Virus record (IMG/VR): IMGVR_UViG_3300031992_000021 | Coordinates: 1-64,000 of that record | Reading direction: 5' to 3' (one strand) | Source of the DNA: a virus | Lineage: Duplodnaviria; Caudoviricetes | Length of the DNA stretch: 64,000 nt | Shown: positions 4,000 to 29,256 of the stretch, one piece after another | Layout of the letters: each line of letters opens with the position of its first letter | How positions within the stretch are numbered: the stretch's first letter is position 1 | Translations under genes and position numbers: made by a program | Notes under the pieces: generated by a model | The model's input: only the letters and a program-made list of their open reading frames with translations | Database searches by the model: none | Told to the model about the DNA's origin: nothing

Positions 4000-5343
4000 T
4001 CACCCGATGAACGGAAGATGATCGACGTCTGGCACGGAGATCTGCGAGAAACCCATCTCCGCGTACCGGCGCCTTCTTGCCTCGTCGTTCCTCGCAAGCA
4101 TTCCAGGCCGCCCGTTGTGGGCATCCCAGTCATGTGAGAAATCGACGAGGTAGACCTTTCCCTTGTTTGTCCACGGGAACTTGTTCCCCGCGAACTCCCG
4201 TCCTCCGCATGTCACTGACACCATGACATTCTGCGCAGTAGCCGGCGGGAAGCATTCCCATGTCGACAGGACGATAGCGGAGTTCCCTCCGGCTATGTTG
4301 TCGAACGCAATCCTGAGATCCTTTACAGGAACCCTTTTGTTGACAACCGTAACGCCAGGACCGCGAATCATGTCCGCAATCTTCTTTTGAATCTGGTCGT
4401 CCGAACAGACTACGCATCCGATGTCTCCAGGAGTTCTGCGGGCAATCTCATTCACTACGCCGAGGAAGGCGTCGCACATGGCTATCGACGAGAGAGTCTT
4501 GAACGGAGCAGAGCCCCATCTTGCATTCGGCCGCGGAGACTTCAGCCAACACACCGTCACGGGCGCCGCGATTCCGGCGTCTGCCGCATTCTGGTATGTG
4601 GCAGAAGAGCACAGCGGGCCAAACAAGCCTTCGGCCGCAAGATCCAGTTCGCACGGAAGACCTCCACACGCCGTCTCGTAGATCCCCCATCTCGCCGCGT
4701 TGCGGAAGACGGAGATATCCCTGGCTCTCTTCACCATGGACTTCTCGTCGAAGGTGACGTCCCCTATGAGTATGCCAACCTCCTTCATGGGATATGCGTC
4801 AAGGCTTCCGTACGGCGCAACGAGAACATCGTCGCTCGAGCAGTCGCCAAGTCCGACATTCCTGTCCGGAAGAATCTTCCTCATGGAGAAGCAGATCCTT
4901 CTGGCATCCTCCCTGTCTCGGGCAGCCACTACAAGGTGTGGCGTTCCGCGCTCGGCCAGACGATCCTTGTGGAACGCCCTTGCGATAGCGGACGCGAATC
5001 CTGTTATCCCGAACATCTCGGGAATGGCCACCACTCCGCCTCCTGCGGACAGGGCGTCTTTCACTACGCCATGCCACACAGCATCAACGCCTTCCAGCGC
5101 CTTATCGACATCAGGTTCGGGCATGGGTACGCGCTCGTCCTTGACTGCATCTTCCGGACACAGCCCAATCACGCGTTCGGCAAAACCCGGCATCGTCACC
5201 AGGGAGTGATGCTCACGAGAAAGCGTGTAGAGCTCTTCATACTCTCCGCTTCCGTCGGATCCATGCCTGAACCTGCTCAGACCGGACATCAGCTCCTGGC
5301 TTGGATATTCAACCACGATGGAGCCTCGTCCGATGCGAATCAT
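4000..5343 (-). CDS. SF2 (UvsW-like) helicase homolog with degenerate ATPase motifs
   Basis: Layout resembles UvsW-type helicases (EGLFGP, VYLVDFSHDW, ARRRRY..MGF). The Walker A site reads IPEMFGIT and the Walker B site reads ILIGDVT. Start from ATGA overlap. Confidence 0.6.
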   Translation of the reverse strand: MIRIGRGSIVVEYPSQELMSGLSRFRHGSDGSGEYEELYTLSREHHSLVTMPGFAERVIGLCPEDAVKDERVPMPEPDVDKALEGVDAVWHGVVKDALSAGGGVVAIPEMFGITGFASAIARAFHKDRLAERGTPHLVVAARDREDARRICFSMRKILPDRNVGLGDCSSDDVLVAPYGSLDAYPMKEVGILIGDVTFDEKSMVKRARDISVFRNAARWGIYETACGGLPCELDLAAEGLFGPLCSSATYQNAADAGIAAPVTVCWLKSPRPNARWGSAPFKTLSSIAMCDAFLGVVNEIARRTPGDIGCVVCSDDQIQKKIADMIRGPGVTVVNKRVPVKDLRIAFDNIAGGNSAIVLSTWECFPPATAQNVMVSVTCGGREFAGNKFPWTNKGKVYLVDFSHDWDAHNGRPGMLARNDEARRRRYAEMGFSQISVPDVDHLPFIG

Positions 5344-5609
5344 GCAAGATTCCACCTTTCGAGCTCTACCTCCGTGAACCCAAGATTCGACATCCTCCTG
5401 TTGCAAAGGAACGCAACAAGGTACAGAATGCCGCACACGACAGCCGCACACAACGCGACGGCAAACGCCGTAGTGAACGCAGTGGTGCGCACCACCATAA
5501 GCGCAAATGCGAACAATGCCATCGCCGCCTTCATGGCGACAGACGCATAGTACATCGCAGCATCTTTCATACGAAGCGCCCAGTAGGCGCAACTCATCTT
5601 CTTGCTCAT
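5340..5609 (-). CDS. small membrane protein
   Basis: 89 aa with two hydrophobic stretches, AAAGGA RBS. Confidence 0.65.
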   Translation of the reverse strand: MSKKMSCAYWALRMKDAAMYYASVAMKAAMALFAFALMVVRTTAFTTAFAVALCAAVVCGILYLVAFLCNRRMSNLGFTEVELERWNLA

Positions 5610-5661
5610 CGTTTTGTTCCTTTCTTGTTATCCGGTTTGATTGCCGGAAATCTTAAAATTG

Positions 5662-5691
5662 AAAAGGCCCTCCGGACGAATCCGGAGGGCC
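5662..5691 (-). terminator. intrinsic terminator closing the pentamer array
   Basis: Minus strand GGCCCTCCGGA-TTCG-TCCGGAGGGCC-TTTT: 11-bp perfect stem, UUCG loop, U-tract. Confidence 0.85.
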
Positions 5692-5698
5692 GTCGGTT

Positions 5699-6406
5699 GC
5701 AGCCGAGCATTTGTGCGCAACACATTGGAATGCCGCACATAACTTTGCCAAGCCTGCCTGATCGCGCCCTTCCTGGCTACTACATACCAAACCATGCCTG
5801 CCGGTCCGGACAATTCCGAGATCCGCCAGACCCAGCCTAACCAAGCCTGCCATGCAGTACCGAGCCTAGTCGAGCATAACCAATCCGATCACAACCTGCC
5901 ATGCTATACCCCTTTGTGCATGACAATGCCTTGCCCTGACAAACAATGCCAGCCAGACACCACCAATCAGGGCCGGACATGACTCAACCAAGCAACTCAT
6001 TGCTTCGCCTGCCGCTCCGGTCTGTACCAGACCACTCCGAACCGCTCCGGACATTTCCCTACCTTGCCTGCCACACTCTTCCGTGCCAAACATTTCCGCT
6101 CTCTGCCTCTCCAAGCCAATCTTAACCTGCCGTGCCAAACTGCGCTGAACCGGGCCGGTCATAGCCGGACAAAACCGGACATAACCTGCCGAGCCAAGCC
6201 ATGCAGATCAACTCACGACCGGGCCGATCAGGACCGGACATTGCCTGCCTGGCTATTCATTGCTGATCCCCGCTATTCACCGCCGAACTGGTCAGAACCT
6301 AACCGATCCAGCCGGGCAATTCAACGGGCAACTCCACGCAGCTATGCTTTGCATTGCCTGCCGAACCGGACACCACTCTGTAGAGTCATGCCCGTCCATG
6401 CCTGCA
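5699..6406 (-). ncRNA. putative guide-RNA array: 13 units of 4-nt delimiter + 8-12 D-G-H-N-N pentamers (VIPR-like)
   Basis: Delimiter hexamers (+ strand CCTGCC and variants) start at 5699, 5753, 5797, 5846, 5895, 5949, 6008, 6067, 6126, 6185, 6244, 6308, 6357, 6401. Spacings 54,44,49,49,54,59,59,59,59,59,64,49,44 are all 5n+4. By hand count, 119/130 pentamers have G at position 2 and 0/130 have G at position 3. Confidence 0.85.
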
Positions 6407-6422
6407 ATGGCGGATTGTGTGA

Positions 6423-6848
6423 TTATTTGTGGGAATCGATTGCTGTCCAGATGTCACTCAGACGCCTGAGGTGCGAATAGCGTTCACGAAGTCCGCGAAG
6501 CTGCTCAAGAGCGTCCCTCTCGGCAACAGCCATGAGGTCTTGTCTCTTCGCTACGTCGGAAGCAAGGCGATACGGGTTTTCGCCCCTGCCGCCAAGCCTG
6601 TCGGTCGAAAGCCCGATGAACATCGGAACCTCCGTCTTCTTGCCGTTGTCTTCGCACACGACGCGAAACGAGCGGATAAGACGTTGCGCCTGGTCAAGCC
6701 GATACTTTTCGGCCGCCACGCCGTCGTTCCACTCGAATGCGCTATGCAGCGGAGACTTCTCGTCGCGAGCCTCGTCAACCACGGCCTGCGGGCGCAACAG
6801 TCCCCCGTTGCGCTCCGCAATGGCCTTCAACGCTTCGATCTGCGTCAC
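6423..6848 (-). CDS. conserved phage protein, partner of the RAMP-like gene
   Basis: Motif L.P..VVDEARD..SPLHS.FEW.D..AAE.YRL.QA..LIR. GTGA overlap with the upstream gene; ends 16 nt before the array. Confidence 0.85.
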   Translation of the reverse strand: MTQIEALKAIAERNGGLLRPQAVVDEARDEKSPLHSAFEWNDGVAAEKYRLDQAQRLIRSFRVVCEDNGKKTEVPMFIGLSTDRLGGRGENPYRLASDVAKRQDLMAVAERDALEQLRGLRERYSHLRRLSDIWTAIDSHK

Positions 6849-7549
6849 TTCTTCGACCCTTTCTTCTCAAGCTTCATGACCTCTTCCTTGGTCGAGATCT
6901 CGAAGAGACCCCAGCCCATGCCGGCCGAACTCGTGGAGTCGGGACGGCCCTCGCAGATGCCGACCTGCATGCCGACACGCGCAAGAAGGTTGATGATGTC
7001 ATTCGCACGGAACTGGTCGGCATCGTAGCGGAAGCGCAAACGAGCGCCCCATTCGAGCCACTGGGGACGAACGGAGATGTCGGCGACCTTCTGGATTCCT
7101 CCGACGCGCACCATGCTCTCAAGCATCCTCGGCTCGCCGCCGATGATCTTGACCAGAGGAGTGCCCTCGTCGGCATCCCAGCCGTCCTCGAGAATGAAGA
7201 TCGACAACTTGGCGAGGCTCATCTTGAAGCCTACCAAACGGCAGGCCGAGATGCAGGCGTTCCTGAACGCTGCGGCGGGAATGCCGTCCCATCCCTCAAG
7301 GGAAAGGTGGCGTGCGCCGTTGAAGCATTCGGTGAAATCCTTTGCCTCTTTCTTCTTCCCCTTCGCGGCCGTGCTGCCGGCCTCCTGCTTCGCCTTGATG
7401 GCCATCTTGGCCTTGTGGCTGAACTTATGAATTACCAAGGGCGAAATGCCCTTGATCCAGATCTCTCCGATCTGCATGTTCGGAGGTGCGATGTGGATCG
7501 CTTCCTGCTTGACGTTGGCGCTATCGGCCTTCTTGTTTTCTTTGCCCAT
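6845..7549 (-). CDS. Cas7/RAMP-like protein, putative RNA-guided effector
   Basis: RAMP-type motif order: IKGISPLVIH (beta1), GIPAAAFRNAC (P..S/A.K/R helix), C-terminal Gly-rich loop VGMQVGICEGRP....GMGWGLF. AAGGAG RBS before ATG 7549; 234 aa. Confidence 0.75.
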   Translation of the reverse strand: MGKENKKADSANVKQEAIHIAPPNMQIGEIWIKGISPLVIHKFSHKAKMAIKAKQEAGSTAAKGKKKEAKDFTECFNGARHLSLEGWDGIPAAAFRNACISACRLVGFKMSLAKLSIFILEDGWDADEGTPLVKIIGGEPRMLESMVRVGGIQKVADISVRPQWLEWGARLRFRYDADQFRANDIINLLARVGMQVGICEGRPDSTSSAGMGWGLFEISTKEEVMKLEKKGSKK

Positions 7550-7630
7550 TTTGGACTCCTTGTTGTTTTGTTCTTGTTGTTGCCGGAAGCCAACCGGACA
7601 TTTTCCCGGCACCCGCCGGTGGGCTGAATG

Positions 7631-8825: not shown

Positions 8826-11150
8826 TCAGTCCTCCTTGTTGATGATTGCCCCGAGATCGATCCTCGTGTCGAGAAACGGCATGATCGCCTTCTCGTGTGT
8901 CGCCATGAGAATCTGCAGGCCCTTGTTCCTCGCGACCTCCCCGACCTTCTGGAGAAGCTCCCCGAGATGCCCGATCGACGCGTCGTCCAGGTACGCCGTA
9001 GGCTCGTCCAGGCTGAGAAGCCCGAGCTCGCCGCCGAAGCACATGTAGATCGCCATGCGGAACGCGATGGCCAAGGCCACCTTCTGCCCTCCGGAGAGGA
9101 GCGATGCGTCCGGATGCGGATCCGGCATGCTGCGGCCGTCGATGAAGCAGCATCGGAAGCCGAAGCCCTCCTCCTCCGCCTCCACGACGAACGGTGCGCA
9201 GAACTGGTCGAGATACGAGTTGACGCACGCGGTCAGCTCCTTCATCACGTTCTGAGACATGATCCGCGGACCTTCCCTGTAGTGGAACCAGTCGCGGGAA
9301 CGCTTGAGCGTGTCGACCTTCGCCTTGACCTTCTCCTCGAGCTCCTTCTTCTGCACGAGCTCGTCCACGAAGCTCCTCGTCTTCTTGATGGTCTCCTCGG
9401 CGGCCTCAAGCTGACCCTTCGTTCCTGCCATGTCGCGCAGGATGCCGTTGTAGGCGTCGAGGTTTGCCCTTGCCTTCCTGAGCGCATTGTCGCAGGATCC
9501 TTCGTCTCCGTTCTTCACGGACTCTGGATCGATGCCCAGGCCGACGAGCTTCTCCGCGCAGTCGCGCCGGTTGTTCCCGATGAGGTCGATCTGGGCGGCA
9601 AGCTTCGCCACGTTGTCGCGGGCGTCCTTCGCCTGCATCTTCGTGGATTCGATCGCGCTCAGCGACTTCGAGATCTCGGACATGCGGTCATTGATCTCGC
9701 CTATCCTGTTCTGGACGTGAACCTGCGTCTTCTGGATGTTCGGAAGGTCGTCAGGCGTCTGGCCCTTGTACGACACGACCTGCGTGAGCACGTCGATCTC
9801 GCACCCCTCGACATTTGCGTCTTTCGCCTTCTGCAAGGCGGCAAACGCGATGTCGTACGCGTTCTTCTCCCGCTTCTCCTTCTCGCGTGCGCCCTGCTCC
9901 TCGGCCCAGCGCTTGTCATAAGCCATCCGGGCTTCCTTCGCCTTGTCGCATGCAGACTTGGACCTTTCCTCCGCGGCCGAGATCCTCTCCTTGAGGTGCT
10001 TCTCGATGTCCTCCTGCGACGCCTGAGCTCCGCAAACTGGACACGTTCCGTCGCTGCTCGCCTCCTTTACGAGGTTGCGCAGAGACCTAAGTTCAGACTC
10101 GGCCGAAACCTGCTCAGCTCCAAGACGTTCGACCTCGGCATTGTCGTCCTCGATCTTCGTCTTGTACTTTCCGGTGATGTCGTTGAGCTCTGCCGTGGCG
10201 GCGCCGTAGCGCTCGCTTGCGCACGTCAATGCGTCTGCAAGCTCCTTCATCCGAGAGAGGAACCTCACCGACTCCTTGCATTCGTCAAGCTCCTTACGCT
10301 TGATGTCGAGCTCCGCGGAAAGTTCGGCATGCTCATTCCTGAGCTTCTGCCACTCATCCTCGGACACTGCCCCCATGCCTGCGAGCTTCGCAAGAGCGCT
10401 CTCGTGCTGGGCCTGCGTATCGGCGAGCGCCTGCTCGGCCCTCACATACGCAGCGATCGCCTGCTGTGCGCCGGCGCACTGGTCGACCTCCGCCTCAAGC
10501 GATTCCTTGCTCGGAAGCGTCTTGACTGCGTTCTCGTACTTGGCGAGAGCCTCGCGGCACTTCTTCGCGACCGCCTCCTGGTCTGCAAGCTGCTGCCGCG
10601 CCCTTGCGATCGCCTCGTCGAATCCCTGAGGCTTGTCATACGCCGCGATCTCGGTACGCAGCGCCTCGTATATCTTCGACGCGTTCCCGATTCCGATGAG
10701 CCGCTGGAAAGCGACTTCGCGGTTCTTGGGATCGTCGAAGAGGATCGCGTCGATTCCCTTCTGGGGAACGAACACGATCTGGCGTATCAGTTCCTTGTCG
10801 AGACCCGCCTTCTCGCGCAGGGCCTCCTCGACCTTCTTGGCCTGCTTGACCGTCTCGTCGCCCACCTTCAGGACGACGTCTCCGTTTGTCTTCCTGGTTA
10901 CGACGAACTCGTCGTTCCGCGGTCCGGCCGTGAAGAACAGCCTCACGGATCCTTCCTTCTCGCCCCATGTCGTGAGGTCGGCCTTGGTGAATCCAGGCTG
11001 CTCTCCGGTAAGGGCGAACTGTATCGCTCCGATCAGGTTGGACTTGCCGCACCCGTTCGGCCCGAGCACGGCGATCAGATTGCCGCTGAAGTCAACGTCC
11101 AGCTGGCGGTGCTGACGGTAGTTCGTCAGCTCAATCCTTTTCAAGTGCAT
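8826..11150 (-). CDS. sbcC: SbcC/Rad50 SMC-like ATPase
   Basis: Walker A GPNGCGKS, coiled coil with CPVC zinc hook, signature LSGGQ, Walker B LSLDEPT, H-loop ATH. Confidence 0.95.
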   Translation of the reverse strand: MHLKRIELTNYRQHRQLDVDFSGNLIAVLGPNGCGKSNLIGAIQFALTGEQPGFTKADLTTWGEKEGSVRLFFTAGPRNDEFVVTRKTNGDVVLKVGDETVKQAKKVEEALREKAGLDKELIRQIVFVPQKGIDAILFDDPKNREVAFQRLIGIGNASKIYEALRTEIAAYDKPQGFDEAIARARQQLADQEAVAKKCREALAKYENAVKTLPSKESLEAEVDQCAGAQQAIAAYVRAEQALADTQAQHESALAKLAGMGAVSEDEWQKLRNEHAELSAELDIKRKELDECKESVRFLSRMKELADALTCASERYGAATAELNDITGKYKTKIEDDNAEVERLGAEQVSAESELRSLRNLVKEASSDGTCPVCGAQASQEDIEKHLKERISAAEERSKSACDKAKEARMAYDKRWAEEQGAREKEKREKNAYDIAFAALQKAKDANVEGCEIDVLTQVVSYKGQTPDDLPNIQKTQVHVQNRIGEINDRMSEISKSLSAIESTKMQAKDARDNVAKLAAQIDLIGNNRRDCAEKLVGLGIDPESVKNGDEGSCDNALRKARANLDAYNGILRDMAGTKGQLEAAEETIKKTRSFVDELVQKKELEEKVKAKVDTLKRSRDWFHYREGPRIMSQNVMKELTACVNSYLDQFCAPFVVEAEEEGFGFRCCFIDGRSMPDPHPDASLLSGGQKVALAIAFRMAIYMCFGGELGLLSLDEPTAYLDDASIGHLGELLQKVGEVARNKGLQILMATHEKAIMPFLDTRIDLGAIINKED

Positions 11151-14735: not shown

Positions 14736-14812
14736 TGGCGGAGATGCCGGGGATCGAACCCGGAACCTGCGGTTTAGGAAACCGCCGCTCTGTCCAATTG
14801 AGCTACACCTCC
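14736..14812 (-). tRNA. tRNA-Arg(CCT)
   Basis: 77-nt cloverleaf GGAGGTG...CATCTCC-GCCA. D-arm GCTC/GAGC, anticodon arm GCGGT-TTCCTAA-ACCGC, T-loop TTCGATC. Confidence 0.95.
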
Positions 14813-18161: not shown

Positions 18162-21100
18162 TTACGGACTTGAGCTATCGGCGCCCAACGTCTTCAGAAC
18201 AGACCATTCGGATCCCGTGCCCTTGTATGGCGTCATGTTTGACACCTCGGAACCAGGCGGCAGGTATAGTGTGCCGTTCGGGGCTACTTCATTTGCCCAG
18301 TTAGAGTAGGTGGCCGCGTCTGGGTCTGCCATGAACATGAGCGCTATCTCGCCAAGGTTTGTGCATCCGTTGAACATTCCATTCATGGCGCCGCTTGCCG
18401 ACGTCTCTGCGGCGATGAATACGACAAGCTGTCCTGTTCCGAGATTCTCGCATCTGTTGAACATGTTTTCATAGCAGTTGTTCTCAAGGGATTTCGCAGG
18501 AAGCGACGGGGCATCCGCGATGGCCGTAGACCAGAACATGCCATAGTAGCAGTATTTCGCAAGCACAAGCGCCGGCAGCTCCGGTGCGACACGAAGGCTC
18601 TCGCATCCGAAGAACATATTGTAGAAACATCTTTCTCCAAGCGGTATGTTCTCCGCCGGCATTGTCGGAACGAGTGCGTACGGATCCGAACTGCCGTCGT
18701 CCGCTCCAAGGCTTTTACAATTATAGAACATCGAGTAGCAGCAACTCGATCCAACGGATTCGACCCTGCTGAAGTCTATTCCTCCGGCAGACGAGATGTT
18801 GTAGCAGCTGTAGAACATGTACTCGCAGCAGCTTTCGCCCAGGACCACAGGACTGATCGACGGAGCGATTTCAAGACCGTAGTACCCCGATATTCCGGTG
18901 GTGACGTAGCATTCGGAACCGCATCCATAGAACATGTATTGGAATGCCCGTTCGGCGATGACGTCGCATTCGGGCATTGCCGGCGGCGTCTTGAGGCTTT
19001 CGCAATCCCTGAACATGCTCTCACAGCACAACTTCGGCGCCTCTGACAGATGCGACAGGTCTACACTTCCTGCGTCGGTCATGTTGCGGCACTCCCTGAA
19101 CATCTCTGCGAAGCATTGCTCTCCGGCGTTAGTCACGCTGATCGAAGGAGCCGCCTCAAGGCCTGAGTACTCCTTGAGGCAGTTGCTGTCCGGGATGCTG
19201 ACGACGAACTCATTGCTTCGGATGTTGGTCTCCTCGAAATGGAACGCATGGAACTTTCCGCCTTCGCACGTGACGGTGGCCGCATTGCCTTCTTCGTCTA
19301 TGATTGAAGCACCATATATCTCGACCGTGAATCCAAATGCGTCTCCCACCCCGACAATCAGCCAGAACGACCTCCTGTACGGAAGGTCTTCAAGATGGAA
19401 CGGGAAGACTTCTCCGTTTCCTGTGATCAGGTTCACCTTTCCGTTTTCTATTTCTGTGACGTTGTTATGGGACCACGCATACGTCGTCTGCCTGTTGGTG
19501 TACGACCCGGTCTGGTAGAACATCTGGTAGCAGCACTTCTTGCCCATTGTCGTCGCAGAGATCGACCTTCCAGACGCATTCTCCATTCCCGTGCATCCGT
19601 AGTACATCTGGTAGCAGCACTCTTCGCCCATGGTATCGGCCGACATGGACGACGGATACCTGAGCGAAGTGCAGAGGGAGAACATCTGATAGCAGCATCT
19701 GTCGCCCAATAACGCTCCGGATATCGAAGGGCCGGAGGTAAGGCTTGAACATTTCAGGAACATCTGGTACAAGCACTCGTCGGCTATGTCGCCCGATGTC
19801 GAGAGACTTACGCTCGAGGCGGATGTCAATCCCGTACATCCGTAGAACATCTGGTAGAATCCGCGTTCCGCCGTCTTGGATATGGATATCGCCGGCGCCG
19901 TGGACAGAGACGTGCATTCGGCGAACATCTCCTTGCAGCATTCGTATGCCATCGACGGGATTCCGGACAGATGGACGTAGCTTACGTCCGTGAGACGTTC
20001 GCACCTGTAGAACATCCTTGAATAGCAAGATTCGTACAGGGCTTTGCCGCTTGGCAGGATGGGTGCATGCGTAAGGTAGGAACATCCAAGGAACATCATC
20101 TCGAAGCAGCGGTCGGCAAGCGCCGTTATGCTAGACGCTGTTCCGGATGCCGGCAGGAGCGACCTCATATACTTGAAGTTCTCGTTTGTGCATTTCGCAA
20201 ACATCTCGTAGCAGCACTTGTGAGCCATCTTCTTGGCCGACAGCCTTATCGCGACATGTGTGCTGTCCGGGCTGGTTATTCCAGTGCAGCCGTAGAACAT
20301 GTACTGGTAGCATCCCTCCTCCATTTCCTCTGCCGGGAGGCTGTAATTGGAAAGATTGATCGATGTGCAGCGGTAGAACATCGAATCGTAGCACTTCTTC
20401 GCAAGCGTAGTGCGTGGAAGCGATGGCACGGACTGAAGCGACGTACATCCCGAGAACATCGACTGGTAGCACCCCTCGGCAAGCGGAACTCCGGCCCCAG
20501 GAAGCACGGGTGGCGTCTCCAGACCTGCGCAGTTCGCGAACATTCCGCTGAAGCACTGAACGGACATCGCCGTTATTCTCGTCGAAGACCCGCTTTTCGG
20601 AAGGACGTTCGCGGCGGTCGTGATTCCGGTGCACCCAAGGAACATGTTGCAGTAGCAGCGCGGAGCCTCGGAGAGGTCCGTTGCCGGAAGGTTATGGATG
20701 CTAGACACGGAGGTGCAGTTTGCAAACATCTCCTCGTAGCACGACGTAGCAAGCGTTTTCGAAGGAAGGATTGGCACATTGGATATCCCGGTACACTCTC
20801 CGAACATGCCGAAGAAGCACGACGGAGCCAATGCGACATCTGGGAACGACGGAAGATTGTCCACAGAGTCGCTCCTCACGAGAGACTCGCACCCGCGGAA
20901 CATCTCGTAGCAGCACGAATCGGCAAGCACGGTCACGCTTGAGAGCGCGAACGGAGTCGCGTCGGACAGCGATGTGCATCCGTAGAACATCTGAGCATAG
21001 CATGAATCCGACAGGACCGTGGCCTCAAGAGACGGGATCGTCTGCAGGCTCTCGCACATGTAGAACATCGCCTGAAAGCACGACGGAACGAGCGCAACTT

Positions 21101-24100
21101 CGCTTGACGGCATGACAGGCGGAGTCGTAAGCGACGTACACCCGGAGAACATCTCGTAGCAGCACGAATCTGCAAGCTCGTCGACGCGAAGATCCACAGA
21201 TCCTGCATTCTGCAAGCTCACGCAGTCCATGAACATCTGCGTGAAGCACTGGTCGGCCACGGAGGCGACTTTCATTCCAGGAGCCGTCGAGAGCCCGACA
21301 AAGACCTCCTCGCCATCCTCTTCGTACGAATATCCGCATCCGGCGAACATCTGGTCGAAGCAAAGCTTCGCCATGGAATGCGTGCCGGCATTCGGAAGCA
21401 GCGGGGGCGCAGAAAGCTTCTCGCATCCATAGAACATCTGCTCGCAGCAGCTTTCGGCCATGTCTACTCGCAGGTTCACCCCAGATGCGTCTGACAGGTT
21501 GAAGCAGTTTCTGAACATTCCGACCATGCAGTTGGAAGCCATGGACGAAACGGTTATGGAAGGCGCTGTGGCCAATCCGGAATATGTCCGTTCAGATCCT
21601 TCTCCGTTCCTCTCTCCGCACCCCTCGAACATCGACATGCAGCAGGAATCCGACATCTCTCCGAACGACATCGGCTGGACGCTCGATATGCTCTTGCAGC
21701 CTCGGAACATGTTATTGAAGCACATTGACCCCGACGATCCGACCGTGATCGATCCGACGGACGACAGACTCGAACAGCCAAAGAACATCTGTGCGCAGCT
21801 TGACGGTCCGACAGTTGTCGCGGATATCGATCCTGAAGACGTGATTCCGGTACAGTCGCTGAACATGCTATAGCAGCATCTCTCGCCCATTGTAGAGGCG
21901 CTGATGGCTGGAGAGGATTTCAGTCCATGGCAGCCGCTGAACATGTTGATGTAGCAGTATGGCGCGAGATCGGATGCGGACGGCAACGCTCCGCTTGCTA
22001 TCCCGTCCACGCCAGACTGCGTTCCGAGTCCGGTGCATCTGCTGAACATCGAATAACAGCAATACTGGCCGAGTGCAGTCGCCTTGATCCTGCCGGCCGC
22101 CAACGTCTTGAGGCCCGTGCATCCCTCAAACATGCTGCTGTAGCAGTATGTGGCGCTTGATATGTTTGTGGCCTTCAGGACCGGTATGTCGGAAAGACCC
22201 GTGCATCCGTAGAACATTTGCTTGTAGCATCCGACAGCAAGGGAGGTTGCCGGAAGGGCGTCGCTCGCAACTCCTGCCACGCCAGACTGCGTTCCGAGGC
22301 CTGTGCATCCGTAGAACATGCCTAAGTAGCATTCGTATCCGAGCCTTGTGGCTCTCAGCCTTCTGGAGGGAACAGTCTTGAGCGCAACGCATCCTTTGAA
22401 CATGCACTGGTAGCACCTGTCTGCAGACGAAATGTCCGTCGCCGGAAGGTTCGGGACGACATTCAGTTTCGTGCATCCCTCAAACATGCTGCAGTAGCAT
22501 TCGACGGCGCCAGACATATTTGTGGCAGGCAGGGCGTTTGCCGCAATTCCGTCGACTCCCGACGTTCCGCCTAGGCCCGTGCAGTCTTGGAACATTCCAT
22601 AGCAGCAGTAAGGCCCCATCGTCGTGGCCTTGATCTTGTTTGCGGGAACGGAGCTCAGTCCTGAGCATCCACTGAACATCTCCCTGTAGCAGTTTGCCGC
22701 GGAAGATATGTTCGTGGCCGGGAGCTCGGGAATCTCCGTTAGACCAGAGCATCCACTGAACATGCCGTAATAGCATGATTGCACAACAGACGTGGACGGA
22801 AGCGACATCGAGGCGGATGTCGTATCCGCCGACCGCGACGCATACACATGATACTCGAAGTCGAACGAAGTAGATGTCCTCACGCCGTCATAGCCATCTA
22901 CTCTCACCTGAGTGTTTTTTATTCTGAGAACTGTTGGAGTGCCTGACGACGGAACCTCAATCAGCGCCATGTCTACATACTCGGCCTGCCTCAGGTAGTC
23001 TGGATAGTCCTCGTTGTCTGCGTATGGTTTGTAGGACTTGTTTTTTGCGACTGCGTATACGCATCCGGACGGAGGCTCCTTGTCGAACGTGAAGTATCCG
23101 TTGTACCAGGACGTGTCGTAGGCCGTGGCCGTCACGGTGCGCGACCCCGTGAAGCTCACGGTTGTTGAATTTCTGGTTCCTGTTCCTGTTGCCACAACCG
23201 AAGTGATTCCGTTGTTCTTGTTCACGTCGATGAGGCGGCAGCTGATGTTCCCGCGCCAGTCCGGTGCGCCGTTTACGACTGCGTACAAGTGTCCGTCCGG
23301 AGGCTCGGGACTGAACGTCCATGACTGGGAATCCAGCTGCGCGAAGTATGTGTGGAACGTAGCTTGCACGTCGTAATACATGTTTCCGAACGACGCGGAA
23401 GACGAACCGCTTGCAACATTATTGCTGCTTACCGCCTCATATTCTTCGAGGACCCTTTCATAGTCCCACTCGGTCCAGTCCGTGTCCGCACCTTCCGGAA
23501 CCTTCAGAAGCGAAAGATGGTCGTCGTCCCCATAGACATATCCGGCCGGAGCCTTTGCGACAGCGTATTTATATCCAGACGGAAGGTCTCCGTATGGAGA
23601 AGTCCAGCTGAATGTCCACGATCCAAGGCCGCTCACGAAACTGGAGATGCCGGAGCAGCCGGCGAACATTTCGCGATAGCACGACTCCGCAAGCGTCGCA
23701 TCGGGGAGCTGGTATGCCTTTGTGATCGACGAACATCCCTTGAACATGTATTCATAGCACGACGGAGCGAGCGTAGTGGACCTGAACCTGGGAGCCTCGG
23801 TTATGGAGGTGCACCCGTTGAACATCCCGCTGCAGCAGTATTCCGCAATAACGCCGTCCGATGTTCCCAAGGCATAGATGGGATATACGGTAGCGATGCT
23901 CACGCATCCTGAGAACATGTCTTTGTAGCACGACTTGGCAAGAGTTGTGGCAGGAAGCGAAATCGACCTTGATAGGCTCGTGCATCCATAGAACATGGCT
24001 TCATAGCAGCTCTCGGCAAGAACCGTAGATGTCAGACGAAAACCGTAGAATCTTTCCAGATTCAGACTTGTGCATCCATAGAACATTCCCTTGTAGCACG

Positions 24101-27100
24101 CCTTCGCCATGTCGGCATTGTAAGACCACCCATCGTAGAATATACCCTCGAGCCCTGTGCATCCATTGTACATTCCCTCGAAGCATCCTTCGGCAAGCGT
24201 GGAAGGCGTAGGGAACATGATATCTTTTATTCCGGCACATCCGCTGAACATGTAGGAACAGCACTGATTCGCCATTGTCGAAGATCCTACATCGACGTAC
24301 AGAAGGCTTGCGCAGCCGTCGAACATGTGCGTGAAGCAATACGGCTGGAGAGTTGCCGTCGTAATCGAGTTTGGCGTGCCGGAAAGTTTCACGCATCCGC
24401 GGAACATATGCGCACAGCACCGCGATGCAAGCGTGGAGTTCTGTGTGACGAGAGCTGTCACGCCGCGCATCGTCACCAGACCTGTGCATCCGTAGAACAT
24501 GTTCTCGTAGCACGAATCGCTCAACGTGGTGGCAGGGAGCGCGGCGGATGCCTTCAGGCTTGTGCAGTCTTGGAACATGGACTTGTAGCACGCCTCGGCG
24601 AGCGCCATTGCCGGCAACGCGTTCTCCTCAAGACCTTCTACGTTCTCGTCGCTCCCAAGGCCCGTGCATCTATAGAACATCTCCTCGCAGCAATGCGGAC
24701 CCATCTTAGTCGCCTTGATGGTCCCTTCCGGAATGCCATTCAGGCCCGTGCATCCGTAGAACATGCCCTTATAGCATCCATCCGCTCCGGACAGGTCCTT
24801 TGCGCAAAGAGCAGGGACATTCTCCATAGCAACGCATCCGTCGAACATGTGCGTGCAACAGTACTGGGCCATTGAAGCGTTCTCGTCGGACAGCGAGACG
24901 ATGCCGCTCACGTCGTTGAGGGACGTGCATCCGTAGAACATGTACGCGCAGCAGTATTTCTCGAGCGTGGTCGCGCTTACGGAAGGAGCGGACGTCATCG
25001 CGGTGCATCCGGCGAACATGTACCCGAAGCAGTATTCGCCAAGCGTAGTGGCGTCTATGGATGGAGCCGCTCCGAGAAGTATGCAGTTGTAGAACATCCC
25101 GTAGCATGCGCCGTACCCGATCGTTCCGCCGTCGTCGAACGCAGCTATCTCCCCCACGGTCACGAGAGCCGAACACCCGTTGAACATGCACTTGCAGCTC
25201 GACTCCTCCAGGCTGGTGGCGTCTATCGCCGGCGACGTCTCAAGCGCGGTGCATCCGCTGAACATGTACGAATAGCATCCGAGCGCGAGCGACGAGGATC
25301 CGAGGCGCGAGACGTTCTTGAGATTCCTGCATCCGGCGAACATGTACGAGCAGCATGCCTCCGCCATCGCCACCGACGGAACGGAAGGGGCCGTCACGAG
25401 GCTCGAACACCCGTTGAACATCTTGTAGAAGCACCTCGGCGCAAGAGTGGTGGCAGATATGCTTGTGGCCGTCGTAAGTCCAGAGCACCCGGAAAACATG
25501 TACGCGCAGCACGATTCGGCCATTTCGGATGCCGCGACGTTAGGCGTGGTTCCAAGCGACGTGCAGTCCTGGAACATGCCGTAGAAGCATTCCAATGCAC
25601 ATGTCGAAACAGACGAGAAAAGGCCCGATCCGAAAATAGTCAAGGACGTGCATCCGGAGAACATCTCACGGCAGCACCCTTCATCCATGCCGGCAGGAAG
25701 CGCGAACCCGGATATGGAAGTCATGCCAGAGCATCCGGAGAACATATTCGCGTAGCATCCGCTCTTGAGCGTTTTTCCGGATGGCAGAGACGGCATGCTA
25801 GGGATCGATGTCAGCCCAGAGCATCCGCTGAACATCTCATTGAAGCAGTCCGCTGCGAGGTCCGTCACGCTTCCGATAGAGAACTGGTTCGTTCCGTTCC
25901 TCGTAAGGCTCAAACACCCGCTGAACATTCCACCAAAGCATCCGTCTGCCATTTCCTGCGGAACGAACCCCCTTGCAGTCGTGAGGCTCGTGCATCCTGC
26001 GAACATGTACGAGTAGCAGTTTGCGGCCAACGCAAACCCTGAAACGCCGCTTCCGGGGAGGATTGGAGATGTCACGATCGCCGAGCATTCGCTGAACATG
26101 CTCTGGAAGCACTCGGACTCCAACGAGGTGACGGAAGTGAACAGGTTTCCGTTTATTCCGCCAGAAAGAAGCATGGAGCACCCGCTGAACATGTTCCGGC
26201 AGCAGGCAAACTTCATGTCTCCGTAAAGCCTGAAGTTCGTGGCGTCGGTGAGCCCGGAGCAGAACGAGAACATTCCGTCGTAGCAGCAGTCCTGAAGCTC
26301 CACCCCTGATCCCGGCATCGTCGGAACCGTCGACATCCCGGAGCCGGAAAACATCTCCGAGAAGCAAGATTCCGCGAGAGTCGACACGCCGCCAAACCCG
26401 AATCCGCTGCCGAAGCTCGAGTTCGTGATTCCGGCGCATCCGCTGAACATACCGTAGAAGCAGCCCGTCTTCATCTCGGACGGAACATAGAAACCGGTGA
26501 CGGACGCAATGGCGCAGTTGCGGAACATTCCCTCGTAGCATCCGTTCTTCAGCGCAGACAGCGAGGGAAGCGCAGCCGTTCCTGACATCAGGACGCATCC
26601 GTCGAACATGTACGAACAGCACGAATCTGCCAATGTCGTAACGTGAGAAAGCGACGGCGCGGCAGTCAGGTGGTCGCAGTCAAGGAACATTTCATGGTAG
26701 CAGCCCGTCTTCAGGATTTCTGCAGGCAGAGAAGGGGCCGACGTCATCCTGTCGCATCCGGCGAACAGGTTTGCGAAGCAGTATTCCGACGGTATCTCGG
26801 TCTTGTCGGCGAAAGACCTGTAGAGCAGCGACATGATGTTGCCGCCGCAGGCGCATTTGGCGAACAGATCCTCCAGGAACAGATCGCCTTCTTCGCTCGG
26901 GCTTTCGATCTTGAAACACCTGTAGTTGCCGTCGTCAACGCTGAAACCGGTGTTTCCGTAATATCCAGAGCGAAGATACAGCCTAGTTCCGACGGGTATC
27001 GTCACCGCCGTGCCGTCCACCGGGAACGACGACCAATTCCCGGACCCGGTAGTCGACTTCTCAAGCGTTACAGAAGGAAGACCGTTGCCATGGCTTTCAA

Positions 27101-27158
27101 GACATACTGTGATATCTGCTCCGGTAGCCTCAAGATAGAATGGTGTCGTATCCGCCAT
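18162..27158 (-). CDS. giant Cys-rich BspA/DUF285-type leucine-rich-repeat protein (2998 aa)
   Basis: Dozens of ~25-aa repeats CY..MF.GCTSL..AP.LPAT.LA..C; GGAGGAG RBS. Confidence 0.85.
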   Translation of the reverse strand: MADTTPFYLEATGADITVCLESHGNGLPSVTLEKSTTGSGNWSSFPVDGTAVTIPVGTRLYLRSGYYGNTGFSVDDGNYRCFKIESPSEEGDLFLEDLFAKCACGGNIMSLLYRSFADKTEIPSEYCFANLFAGCDRMTSAPSLPAEILKTGCYHEMFLDCDHLTAAPSLSHVTTLADSCCSYMFDGCVLMSGTAALPSLSALKNGCYEGMFRNCAIASVTGFYVPSEMKTGCFYGMFSGCAGITNSSFGSGFGFGGVSTLAESCFSEMFSGSGMSTVPTMPGSGVELQDCCYDGMFSFCSGLTDATNFRLYGDMKFACCRNMFSGCSMLLSGGINGNLFTSVTSLESECFQSMFSECSAIVTSPILPGSGVSGFALAANCYSYMFAGCTSLTTARGFVPQEMADGCFGGMFSGCLSLTRNGTNQFSIGSVTDLAADCFNEMFSGCSGLTSIPSMPSLPSGKTLKSGCYANMFSGCSGMTSISGFALPAGMDEGCCREMFSGCTSLTIFGSGLFSSVSTCALECFYGMFQDCTSLGTTPNVAASEMAESCCAYMFSGCSGLTTATSISATTLAPRCFYKMFNGCSSLVTAPSVPSVAMAEACCSYMFAGCRNLKNVSRLGSSSLALGCYSYMFSGCTALETSPAIDATSLEESSCKCMFNGCSALVTVGEIAAFDDGGTIGYGACYGMFYNCILLGAAPSIDATTLGEYCFGYMFAGCTAMTSAPSVSATTLEKYCCAYMFYGCTSLNDVSGIVSLSDENASMAQYCCTHMFDGCVAMENVPALCAKDLSGADGCYKGMFYGCTGLNGIPEGTIKATKMGPHCCEEMFYRCTGLGSDENVEGLEENALPAMALAEACYKSMFQDCTSLKASAALPATTLSDSCYENMFYGCTGLVTMRGVTALVTQNSTLASRCCAHMFRGCVKLSGTPNSITTATLQPYCFTHMFDGCASLLYVDVGSSTMANQCCSYMFSGCAGIKDIMFPTPSTLAEGCFEGMYNGCTGLEGIFYDGWSYNADMAKACYKGMFYGCTSLNLERFYGFRLTSTVLAESCYEAMFYGCTSLSRSISLPATTLAKSCYKDMFSGCVSIATVYPIYALGTSDGVIAEYCCSGMFNGCTSITEAPRFRSTTLAPSCYEYMFKGCSSITKAYQLPDATLAESCYREMFAGCSGISSFVSGLGSWTFSWTSPYGDLPSGYKYAVAKAPAGYVYGDDDHLSLLKVPEGADTDWTEWDYERVLEEYEAVSSNNVASGSSSASFGNMYYDVQATFHTYFAQLDSQSWTFSPEPPDGHLYAVVNGAPDWRGNISCRLIDVNKNNGITSVVATGTGTRNSTTVSFTGSRTVTATAYDTSWYNGYFTFDKEPPSGCVYAVAKNKSYKPYADNEDYPDYLRQAEYVDMALIEVPSSGTPTVLRIKNTQVRVDGYDGVRTSTSFDFEYHVYASRSADTTSASMSLPSTSVVQSCYYGMFSGCSGLTEIPELPATNISSAANCYREMFSGCSGLSSVPANKIKATTMGPYCCYGMFQDCTGLGGTSGVDGIAANALPATNMSGAVECYCSMFEGCTKLNVVPNLPATDISSADRCYQCMFKGCVALKTVPSRRLRATRLGYECYLGMFYGCTGLGTQSGVAGVASDALPATSLAVGCYKQMFYGCTGLSDIPVLKATNISSATYCYSSMFEGCTGLKTLAAGRIKATALGQYCCYSMFSRCTGLGTQSGVDGIASGALPSASDLAPYCYINMFSGCHGLKSSPAISASTMGERCCYSMFSDCTGITSSGSISATTVGPSSCAQMFFGCSSLSSVGSITVGSSGSMCFNNMFRGCKSISSVQPMSFGEMSDSCCMSMFEGCGERNGEGSERTYSGLATAPSITVSSMASNCMVGMFRNCFNLSDASGVNLRVDMAESCCEQMFYGCEKLSAPPLLPNAGTHSMAKLCFDQMFAGCGYSYEEDGEEVFVGLSTAPGMKVASVADQCFTQMFMDCVSLQNAGSVDLRVDELADSCCYEMFSGCTSLTTPPVMPSSEVALVPSCFQAMFYMCESLQTIPSLEATVLSDSCYAQMFYGCTSLSDATPFALSSVTVLADSCCYEMFRGCESLVRSDSVDNLPSFPDVALAPSCFFGMFGECTGISNVPILPSKTLATSCYEEMFANCTSVSSIHNLPATDLSEAPRCYCNMFLGCTGITTAANVLPKSGSSTRITAMSVQCFSGMFANCAGLETPPVLPGAGVPLAEGCYQSMFSGCTSLQSVPSLPRTTLAKKCYDSMFYRCTSINLSNYSLPAEEMEEGCYQYMFYGCTGITSPDSTHVAIRLSAKKMAHKCCYEMFAKCTNENFKYMRSLLPASGTASSITALADRCFEMMFLGCSYLTHAPILPSGKALYESCYSRMFYRCERLTDVSYVHLSGIPSMAYECCKEMFAECTSLSTAPAISISKTAERGFYQMFYGCTGLTSASSVSLSTSGDIADECLYQMFLKCSSLTSGPSISGALLGDRCCYQMFSLCTSLRYPSSMSADTMGEECCYQMYYGCTGMENASGRSISATTMGKKCCYQMFYQTGSYTNRQTTYAWSHNNVTEIENGKVNLITGNGEVFPFHLEDLPYRRSFWLIVGVGDAFGFTVEIYGASIIDEEGNAATVTCEGGKFHAFHFEETNIRSNEFVVSIPDSNCLKEYSGLEAAPSISVTNAGEQCFAEMFRECRNMTDAGSVDLSHLSEAPKLCCESMFRDCESLKTPPAMPECDVIAERAFQYMFYGCGSECYVTTGISGYYGLEIAPSISPVVLGESCCEYMFYSCYNISSAGGIDFSRVESVGSSCCYSMFYNCKSLGADDGSSDPYALVPTMPAENIPLGERCFYNMFFGCESLRVAPELPALVLAKYCYYGMFWSTAIADAPSLPAKSLENNCYENMFNRCENLGTGQLVVFIAAETSASGAMNGMFNGCTNLGEIALMFMADPDAATYSNWANEVAPNGTLYLPPGSEVSNMTPYKGTGSEWSVLKTLGADSSSP

Positions 27159-27635: not shown

Positions 27636-29165
27636 CTACCGGTAGAACTCCGCCAGCAGTCCTATGCACCGGCTGTCCCTGAGCTTCTCGATCGCCGACA
27701 TCTCGATCTGGCGTATCCTCTCCCTCGTGACGTTGAACAGGAGCCCGACCTCGTCAAGCGTCCTCGGAACGCCGTCTGAAAGTCCGTATCTCGACTCCAT
27801 CACGATCCTCTCGCGCTCCGTTAGCCCCTTCAGCACCTCGGCAACCCGCTCCTTCAGAAGGTTCCTGTCGCACACGTCCGCCTGGTTCTCCGTCTTGTCG
27901 TCCGCGATGAAGTCTCCGTACGTGGCGCTTTCGTCGTCTCCGATCTTGCAGTCAAGCGACACGGTGTGCTGAGACATCTTGCGGAGCTCCGACACCCTGT
28001 CGGCCGTGACGTTCGCCGAATCGCCAGACTTCCCCATTCCGACCAGCTTTGACGTTATCTCGTCCGCCACCTCCGCATCGGTCGCCTTTCGACCAAGCCT
28101 GTCCATCAGCTTCCTGTCGGCCCTTTTCATCATGTCCATCTGCTCGATGACATGGACGGGTATCCGGATGGTCCTTGCCTGGTTCTCGATCGCCCTCGTT
28201 ATCGCCTGACGTATCCACCAGATCGCGTAGGTGGAGAACTTGTGCCCCCTGCGGTAGCTGAACTTCCTCACGGCGTTCATGAGGCCGAGATTCCCCTCCT
28301 GCACGAGGTCGAGGAACGAAATCCCGCGGTTGACGTACTTTTTGGCCACGAACACGACGAGGCGCTGGTTTGCCTCTATGATGCGCGTCCTGGCGGCGTT
28401 TCCCTCGTCGATCGCCCTCCGCAGCTCCGAGAAGCATGATCGGAAGTCGTCAGGCGTCATCCCGAACGTCGCTTCCATCTTTCTGACTTCGTCGGATTCC
28501 GAAGAGTCCTTTACGAGTTTCAGGTATGGTAGGTAGATGGTCTCGTGGGCGGTGTCGCAGAGCTTCTCAAGGACGTCGTGGCGGAACGACAGCTCGTCGA
28601 AGCACCGGCGGAGTTCCGCCCTGGCTCCGAACACGTCTCCGCCGGCGGCAAACTCCCTGGCGAGGCGATCGCGGGCGGACTCAACCTTTCCGCGGAAGGT
28701 TGGGATTAGGGCGATGTAGGCGTTTCGCTTGCCGCTGAAGGCGCCGCCGACTATGTGGTCGAAACGCTCGCTCCTTTCGTCCAGACGGTCGAGCACCTTG
28801 AGGTACATTTCCGGTGCGAAGAGGAATTTGTTGAAGAGGTCGCGTGCGCATATCTCGGAGTCGCAGATGATGCGGAACGCGTCCGACTCCTCGTCCTTCG
28901 TGAGAAGCTTCACCTGCCCGACGTGCCTGAGGTACGAACCCACAAGCGTCTCAGGCCCCCTTTCGCGCCTTGACTTCGGAGACCGTATGTCGGACGGAAC
29001 GTCGACAACCTCGATCCCAACAGCCCTCAGAACGTCTATGTACCGACACGACACCGTGCTGGCCGGAACTCCTCCCGGCAAGGCCGAAAGAAGCTCTGCG
29101 TAGGCAATCCTGCCTCCGTTTTCGCAGCTTCGACGCCTAAGATCGTCGAGCATGCGTGCGAACAT
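27636..29165 (-). CDS. rpoD: RpoD-like group 1/2 sigma-70 factor
   Basis: Region 1.2 [14 protein letters not shown]; region 2 [31 protein letters not shown]...[17 protein letters not shown]; region 4 [18 protein letters not shown]. Start uncertain. Confidence 0.92.
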
Positions 29166-29227
29166 GTTCGCGCTATCGCTGTTCAGGCATGATACAGACA
29201 CTGAAACTCCCAAAGAAATTTCAATAT

Positions 29228-29256
29228 ATTGTATCACGGACTTATGTAAAAGTCAA
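29228..29256 (-). promoter_or_regulatory. sigma-70 promoter of the sigma factor gene
   Basis: Minus strand TTGACT-17nt-TACAAT with extended TG. Confidence 0.7.

Follow-up and report, generated by a model that had tools for sequence, protein, structure and literature searches.

A probable VIPR guide-RNA array in a rumen phage, with guides matching recombination genes of rival phages and the restriction-modification gene hsdM

Introduction

The Viral Interference Programmable Repeat (VIPR), first described in 2026, is a CRISPR-like, RNA-guided silencer of DNA, which comprises a phage-encoded Vipr protein (an ancestral RAMP), a vap gene and guide RNAs, known as vrRNAs, of 9–16 GGY/NN repeats (10.64898/2026.04.26.720920). 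The guides obey a 1-nt skip rule, the skipped base being the codon wobble, and target competing phages and satellites; seven types have been defined, with Escherichia phage SUSP1 and a Pseudomonas fulva prophage as examples of type II, and natural targets were scored at 80% NN identity or better (10.64898/2026.04.26.720920). In the SUSP1 complex, each repeat is occupied by one protomer, which sequesters the GGY triplet while the NN are paired (10.64898/2026.04.26.720927), and the targets lie on both strands, either of which silences (10.64898/2026.04.26.720920). Codon-periodic targeting blocks mutational escape, a property described alongside satellite competition (10.64898/2026.10.15.759431). 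Finally, a genomic language model has yielded non-canonical VIPR arrays of WGT/NN and TGH/NN, in 99 clusters with ~10 repeats per array and no targets given (10.64898/2026.10.21.760802).

The phage locus described here resembles the SUSP1 and P. fulva systems in several respects. It pairs a gene for a RAMP-fold protein with a gene for a small accessory protein and has a guide region on the same strand; that region consists of tandem pentamers, each a G-containing triplet plus NN, with 8–12 of them per guide; and its guides match genes of competing mobile elements with a 1-nt skip on the wobble base, without self-targeting. It also departs from them. The type II examples use separate RNAs of ~100 nt, in which a 3′ tail or pseudoknot is conserved, whereas here the units abut without a tail in one contiguous, staggered array. 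Other differences from SUSP1 are a looser motif, [G/U/A]-G-[C/U/A], an accessory protein without relation to vap1 and a guide that matches hsdM. Because tails and pseudoknots are absent and the accessory protein is a different one, the locus is regarded as a VIPR system, but not one of the SUSP1 type. With the WGT/NN and TGH/NN arrays, it shares a degenerate first motif base and adjoining Vipr-fold proteins (10.64898/2026.10.21.760802).

The Cas7 filaments of class 1 CRISPR-Cas systems (Csm3, Cmr4, type VII Cas7) are a more distant likeness: they have the RAMP fold, place one protomer on each RNA repeat segment and use a thumb that interrupts pairing periodically. Their RNA period is, however, 6 nt and not 5 nt, and in the array described here just two of each five guide bases would pair. 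This array has neither CRISPR repeats nor spacers, and VIPR guides are, as far as known, inherited and not acquired.

In this report, we describe region 5697–6406 of the phage sequence, which is very probably the guide-RNA array of a VIPR system with three guides aimed at genes that the phage itself lacks. The principle (the 1-nt skip, the wobble alignment and the anti-escape logic) is already published and is not new here. New are the clade, the guide that matches hsdM and a target set made up of the Sak4–DUF669 recombination module that rival phages and proviruses carry.

The phage and related loci

The phage is an uncultured, 163-kb rumen virus, represented by a 162,950-bp IMG/VR contig (56% GC, CheckV 92%); the window, that is, the whole stretch of 64,000 nucleotides analysed here, is the start of this record. 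Public runs with this stretch are metagenomes and metatranscriptomes of sheep and bovine gut, and the phage genes include those for tail, sigma-factor and SbcCD-like proteins. Elsewhere in the window are a 2998-aa ORF (18162–27158, minus strand), a 533-aa protein (27636–29237) that matches the phage RNA polymerase sigma-factor PHROG 351 (E 1.4e-74) and a tRNA gene (14739–14812, minus strand; Rfam RF00005, 67 bits).

A 141-aa gene that borders the array is present in 15 related loci, whose protein identity ranges from 91% down to ~31% and whose GC content ranges from 45 to 66%. In 14 of the 15, a period-5 array with GGCAGG junctions 44–64 nt apart directly follows this gene; in the exception, L001, the array lies just upstream of it. 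The G-rich strand is the coding strand in every one of the 15 loci.

Architecture of the array

The array is intergenic and lies between two minus-strand genes, at 6423–6848 (141 aa) and 5340–5609 (89 aa, hydrophobic). A Viterbi parse of the minus strand of 5697–6406 resolves it into ~140 pentamers of the pattern NN-[G/U/A]-G-[not G]. Positions 1 and 2 are variable, with only 13–15% G; position 3 is G (58%), U (25%) or A (15%); position 4 is G in 90% of the pentamers; and position 5 is C (47%), U (30%) or A (22%), G being absent there. Compared with the canonical GGY, this motif is relaxed, as has been described for other VIPR clades (10.64898/2026.04.26.720920, 10.64898/2026.10.21.760802), and its second G alone is near-invariant. 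This rhythm is strong and confined to a single place: the period-5 score of the region is 0.2–0.29, against a genome mean of -0.003 (sd 0.03), and it is the sole region of its kind in the 162,950-bp contig. Searches of the array region against Rfam and, by blastn, against the phage collection gave no match. The region contains no CRISPR direct repeats (~23 nt or more) with unique spacers, only the 5-nt rhythm, and no Cas-type families are found among the Pfam and PHROG matches of nine neighbouring ORFs.

A second, longer periodicity is superimposed on the first. In the autocorrelation of the array, base identity at lags 5, 10 and 20 is 0.40–0.43, against ~0.2 at other lags, and beyond a lag of ~40 the peak moves to 44, 49, 54, 59 and 64, which indicates that one base is lost per ~59. 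The array falls into 12–13 units of 44–64 nt, each with 8–12 NN separated by [G/U/A]-G-[C/U/A], and the unit junctions read GGC-A-GGY, with a spacer of one base instead of two. In a 59-nt unit there are 12 motif triplets and 11 NN, which may be set beside the 12 protomers of the SUSP1 complex. Since the junction is one base short, the register breaks there and the guides are delimited; as read from the sequence, this would give 12–13 separate guides of 8–12 dinucleotides. We infer that the GGC-A-GGY junctions are the guide boundaries, for which the literature offers only the 'staggered arrays', with vrRNAs from positions overlapping by 1 nt (fig. S18 legend; 10.64898/2026.04.26.720920), a layout that is not listed among those confirmed by sRNA-seq (10.64898/2026.04.26.720920).

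Two details of the array stand apart from this regular plan. In its irregular second unit (6311–6359), the register breaks several times (T|GC, CCG|TTGA), yet the sequence is nearly identical in the related loci L007 and L016; the unit may represent not a guide in decay but a conserved element of another kind. In addition, TA makes up 7.9% of the array NN, ~2.7 times the 2.9% predicted from Tyr codons. Given this excess, the depletion of G in the NN and the absence of G after the invariant G, some guides may be aimed at non-coding AT-rich DNA, or be decaying.

Proteins of the locus

The candidate vipr gene (6845–7549, minus strand) encodes 234 aa and was assigned to the Cas7/RAMP fold by AF2, Foldseek and hhalign; in Vipr proteins, this fold takes a minimal form made up of an RRM core, a G-loop and a thumb. 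Its reading frame is open as far as a GTG at 7612, and the start in its relatives is the ATG at 7549. The AF2 model (pLDDT 94.3) gave 36 Foldseek matches in the PDB at E <= 1e-3, all of them Cas7-type RAMPs (best E 1.7e-5, probability 1.0) and including Cmr4, Csm3, type VII Cas7 and Cas7-11. At the level of sequence, the protein has no match in Pfam, NCBIfam or the PDB sequences. The family is nevertheless large, with 2250 representatives at 50% identity, and carries an invariant G/R-rich C-terminal loop, GEGRP...GxGWGxF. The similarity to SUSP1 resides in this G-loop region: hhalign of the family profile with SUSP1 agp039 covers 56 C-terminal columns only (probability 95%, E 3.3e-8), and tblastn of the Vipr candidate did not reach SUSP1. 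Here, agp039 was taken as the SUSP1 Vipr by its locus layout and flanking GGT-NN arrays, and not by the accession list of the paper; in SUSP1 (NC_028808), such arrays flank both agp039 and agp038.

The accessory gene (6423–6848, minus strand), which overlaps the vipr stop by 4 nt, is vap-like in position and encodes the 141-aa protein phrog_15946. Its AF2 model (pLDDT 92.8) has weak winged-helix-like matches only (Z 4.3–6, residues 1–97), followed by a helical hairpin, and hhalign with the SUSP1 vap1 candidate agp038 detected no similarity (probability 0.2%).

Vipr homologues also occur in cultured phages, with 52% identity in Cyanophage Cy-LDV1 and 28–34% in 27 mycobacteriophage and 5 Gordonia phage records. 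Among these records are BK059895.1 (31481–32116), Mycobacterium phages Brocalys, Donkeykong, Saal and others, and Gordonia phages Pipp, ODay and UmaThurman; all of the homologues are annotated as hypothetical proteins. These phages would be convenient laboratory models for the clade.

Transcription signals and RNA coverage

The array is bracketed by predicted transcription signals. A sigma-70-like promoter, TGGACA-16-AATAAT, is predicted upstream of it at 6422–6449 (minus strand; 10/12 positions in a consensus scan), and an intrinsic terminator at 5666–5691 (minus strand), consisting of an 11-bp stem with 9 GC pairs followed by a T-run, would mark the end of the array transcript. From these predicted signals, the minus strand would be transcribed from ~6415 to the terminator at 5691–5666.

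Metatranscriptome contigs from the sheep gut (two runs, one sample) cover 5702–6996 at ~20x, against 0–5x in the flanks, although strand and ends are not resolvable from contigs. The contigs concerned lie at 5770–6996 and 5702–5976, spanning the array and the vap-like gene, with a depth of ~21–23 in the two runs from that sample, while 5608–5684, just beyond the terminator, has zero contig cover in the same two runs. The cover of 5702–6996 in RNA libraries points, if weakly, to expression of the array, and the gap at 5608–5684 is a weak hint that fits termination at 5691–5666.

These signals bear on whether the region acts as RNA at all. Its neighbours include genes for SbcCD-like and other proteins of DNA metabolism, a setting that would suit an element of a replication or recombination module that works at the DNA level, for instance a set of iterons, a packaging site or an origin. 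The strand asymmetry of the array, however, always follows the coding strand, the promoter and terminator bracket the region, RNA-library contigs cover it, and a 5-bp period with a slip of -1 every 59 bp fits no DNA helical phasing. Such an element would also leave the target matches described below unexplained, and we consider this explanation barely credible.

Guides matching the recombination module of rival phages

If the array belongs to a VIPR system, its NN should correspond to target genes read with a skip of one base. The original prediction had proposed precisely this from the array alone: it took the first two bases of each plus-strand pentamer as codon positions 1 and 2, translated six units accordingly and suggested that targets are read as NN-x-NN-x, with x the wobble base. 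The six dinucleotide strings that it quoted are all reproduced exactly in our parse, for example GA AA AT GA AC CG GG GA GG GG TT from 6242–6188, and the proposed reading is supported by three guides with in-phase target matches.

The first of these guides (6247–6306, minus strand) has the plus-strand reading TG AT TT GA CC AT CC GA GG GA TA GA and matches DUF669, or phage single-stranded DNA-binding protein (SSB), genes. Its 10-NN core has 21 exact matches in IMG/VR viral contigs, where ~0.02 would be expected by chance, and all 21 are in phase on the motif F[DE]P[IM]P[DE]GDY[DE], ~25 codons into the gene; the unit decoded earlier as 6250–6313 thus finds its counterpart in the DUF669 motif FEPIPEGDY. 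The full guide agrees with these targets at 20–22 of 24 positions. The 21 target genes belong to several diverged families, and their wobble bases vary.

The second guide (6129–6183, minus strand), with the plus-strand reading GT AA GC GA GG GG TA GG AA GG TA, matches AAA_24 (Sak4-like) recombinase genes. This match was found on the 21 DUF669 loci, with the guide that had fetched them (6306–6247) left out. It agrees at 20/22 positions, in phase, with EKADGGWGNGY in the AAA_24 gene of provirus G169/L098, and at 17/22 with the homologous AAA_24 motif in 14 other contigs; the unit given as 6132–6190 in the original prediction likewise falls in phase on KADGG[W/Y]GNGY. The AAA_24 gene adjoins the DUF669 gene, and the two guide sites are ~500 nt apart. 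In L007 and L009, the orthologues of this guide carry variants of a Y/F (Tyr/Phe) codon at the same position. As a full-length gap-1 pattern, the guide has 0 exact matches in IMG/VR, and no further guides were found to converge on the complete 63-kb provirus G169.

The dependence of these matches on a skip of exactly one base was assessed on local sequence sets, to which the gap 0/2/3 and shuffled controls were confined. On the 21 DUF669 loci (L094–L114), a gap of 1 gave 7 matches at >=0.85, against 0–1 for shuffled guides, and gaps of 0, 2 and 3 remained at or below the shuffled level. The skipped base lies on codon position 3 in all 21 DUF669 matches, in the AAA_24 matches and in all 60 in-phase HsdM matches discussed below.

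No self-target was found for the guides. Scans for self-targets in its genome and in the loci of its relatives, with gaps of 0–3, gave best matches at the level of shuffled guides, and DUF669, N6_Mtase and dUTPase genes are absent from the phage's own genome. At this locus, we find together a RAMP fold, homology to SUSP1, a pentamer array, targets, wobble alignment and no self-targeting.

A guide matching hsdM

The third guide (5800–5844, minus strand; plus-strand reading GG GG AT GA CC AG CA TA AA) was not among the units decoded in the original prediction. It has 68 exact matches, in 1 viral and 67 metagenome contigs, of which 60 fall on GGMDPSQYK, codons ~22–30 of HsdM, the methylase of type I restriction-modification, at 18/18 positions and all in phase; the remaining 8 look like chance background. 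The target genes encode the Pfam domains HsdM_N and N6_Mtase and are followed by HsdS. Their sites represent 39 different 27-mers, set in contexts whose median identity is 69%, and the skipped bases vary freely. The NN of this guide are the same in L007 and L009, two relatives in which its GGY motif has drifted. The HsdM matches are homologous to one another, as are those to DUF669, so that each guide stands for a single match event whose count is multiplied by the size of the gene family. No site for the HsdM guide was present in 168 Latescibacterota genomes.

In the VIPR papers, the targets are phage, prophage, satellite and VIPR only (10.64898/2026.04.26.720920, 10.64898/2026.10.15.759431), and restriction-modification as a VIPR target is not mentioned in any of three of them (10.64898/2026.04.26.720920, 10.64898/2026.10.15.759431, 10.64898/2026.10.21.760802). 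Through the guide at 5844–5800, on the most conserved N-terminal motif of HsdM, the phage could use VIPR to counter restriction under RNA guidance, or to attack mobile islands that carry restriction genes; we put this forward tentatively, as a proposal whose chances we judge slightly less than even.

A side observation concerns a degenerate 8-NN guide of a relative, L007 unit 9, which matches IDEAGHFF of a DUF3987 gene (L032, ~8864–8886) at 16/16 positions and in phase. This sequence match is suggestive. The DUF3987 gene lies 5 kb from the hsdM-hsdS genes matched by the guide of the window, on an 83-kb metagenome contig, and because of this proximity the restriction genes of L032 may belong to a mobile island, and this island may itself be the rival.

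Strand of the targets

For each of the three targets, it is the plus-strand reading that matches, and the vrRNA would accordingly be complementary to the coding strand, and hence to mRNA. A VIPR-type array whose filament acts on mRNA, or on both RNA and DNA, in the manner of an antisense silencer would account for this orientation. It would also agree with the guides as a whole, since likelihood favours the antisense orientation for 41 of 62 non-redundant guides and NN usage correlates with codon position 1–2 usage when read as antisense (r 0.66) but not as sense (r 0.03). The SUSP1 complex can indeed pair with ssRNA, but forms mostly incomplete filaments without the stabilizing triplex (10.64898/2026.04.26.720927), and SUSP1 guides have targets on both strands, with silencing from either. 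The strand bias may equally stem from avoidance of G in the NN, which keeps the register unambiguous, and a bias cannot be established from three targets. Since all three lie on the coding strand, we retain targeting of mRNA as a minor alternative, and an unlikely one, to a VIPR array that silences DNA.

Constraint on the guides and guides without targets

A comparison of the guides common to the window, L007 and L009 shows which pentamer positions carry information. Between orthologous guides, the frequency of differences is 0.084 at N1, 0.089 at N2, 0.305 at G1, 0.089 at G2 and 0.342 at Y3. The low values at N1 and N2 mean that a guide lineage preserves the very positions at which guides differ from one another. 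Such a comparison provides a simple, sequence-only test of which positions of a VIPR repeat carry information: the NN are kept and the motif drifts.

The same values weigh on a quite different explanation, which had been our initial reading. TRAP binds 11 (G/U)AG triplets spaced by 2–3 nt. An array with a 5-nt period, a conserved triplet, 2-nt spacers and ~11–12 repeats per unit could be a multi-site platform or sponge for an oligomeric RNA-binding protein of this kind, its dinucleotides being meaningless spacers. The likeness extends to triplets that recur ~11 times with 2-nt spacers, but here the spacers carry the information: they are the most conserved positions between orthologous guides, and, read in phase, they correspond to conserved protein motifs of unrelated genomes. 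Furthermore, a search of the 163-kb genome for TrpBP (PF02081) gave nothing at E <= 10, and the adjacent protein has a Cas7 fold. This reading was dropped after the Cas7 fold search and the VIPR papers, and we now rate it as very improbable.

The original prediction had also pointed out that the decoded strings look like real protein fragments. Two of the quoted units do have real targets, but the look itself is mostly a matter of base composition. The NN strings fit codon positions 1–2 better than positions 2–3 or 3–1, by 52 and 155 nats, respectively, and 49/62 guides prefer this phase; the gain is, however, mostly mononucleotide composition, with a dinucleotide-level signal of z 1.07. The codon-phase fit is thus supporting, and not independent, evidence.

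Of the units scanned on their own, which did not include 6124–6070, 6065–6011, 5893–5849, 5795–5756 or the unit quoted as 5705–5758, several gave no credible target. For the guide at 6188–6242 (minus strand), previously decoded as [DE][KN][IM][DE]TRG[DE]GG[FL], the full 11-NN gap-1 pattern has 0 exact matches in IMG/VR, and there are 0 matches within 3 mismatches in four rival-phage records; dUTPase, considered as its target, has no match within 3 mismatches in these four records. Exact gap-1 scans in IMG/VR gave 0 matches for the units at 6006–5952 and 5947–5898, as did an exact gap-1 scan of the metagenome collection for the former. The 11-NN version of guide 5947–5898 in L007 and L009 has two matches, to one SDR gene of Latescibacterota MAGs with the NN on codon positions 2–3, which are out of phase and, with ~0.14 expected, are taken as probable chance. 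Chance was also taken to explain six scattered, non-recurrent matches of the 8-NN guide at 6399–6360 and the A-rich matches of L005 unit 0, which agree at 17/20 positions.

Proposed mode of action

By analogy with the SUSP1 complex as resolved by cryo-EM, copies of the 234-aa, Cas7-like Vipr would bind the array transcript, one per pentamer, each sequestering a [G/U/A]-G-[C/U/A] triplet and presenting the two variable bases. These would pair with target DNA two at a time, every third target base being skipped, and the resulting filament would block transcription. At least three guides appear, from their sequence matches, to be aimed at the Sak4-like AAA_24 gene of rival phages and proviruses, at its neighbouring DUF669 SSB gene and at the 5′ end of hsdM.

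As the skipped base falls on the wobble position, one guide can cover a diverged gene family and a synonymous mutation offers no escape. The original prediction had anticipated such insensitivity to synonymous change; the wobble bases do vary freely among the matches, and the same logic has been published (10.64898/2026.04.26.720920, 10.64898/2026.10.15.759431).

Concluding remarks

The guides described here lend independent support to the 1-nt skip of VIPR, since they come from a distant Vipr clade that is beyond the reach of tblastn from SUSP1 and has a relaxed motif and a staggered array. The targets are short, highly conserved protein motifs of families that the phage lacks, and hence one guide can reach many rivals. 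Silencing of type I restriction-modification genes is a candidate new use of VIPR; if it is true, one wobble-blind guide would shut type I restriction-modification operons across many diverged hosts.
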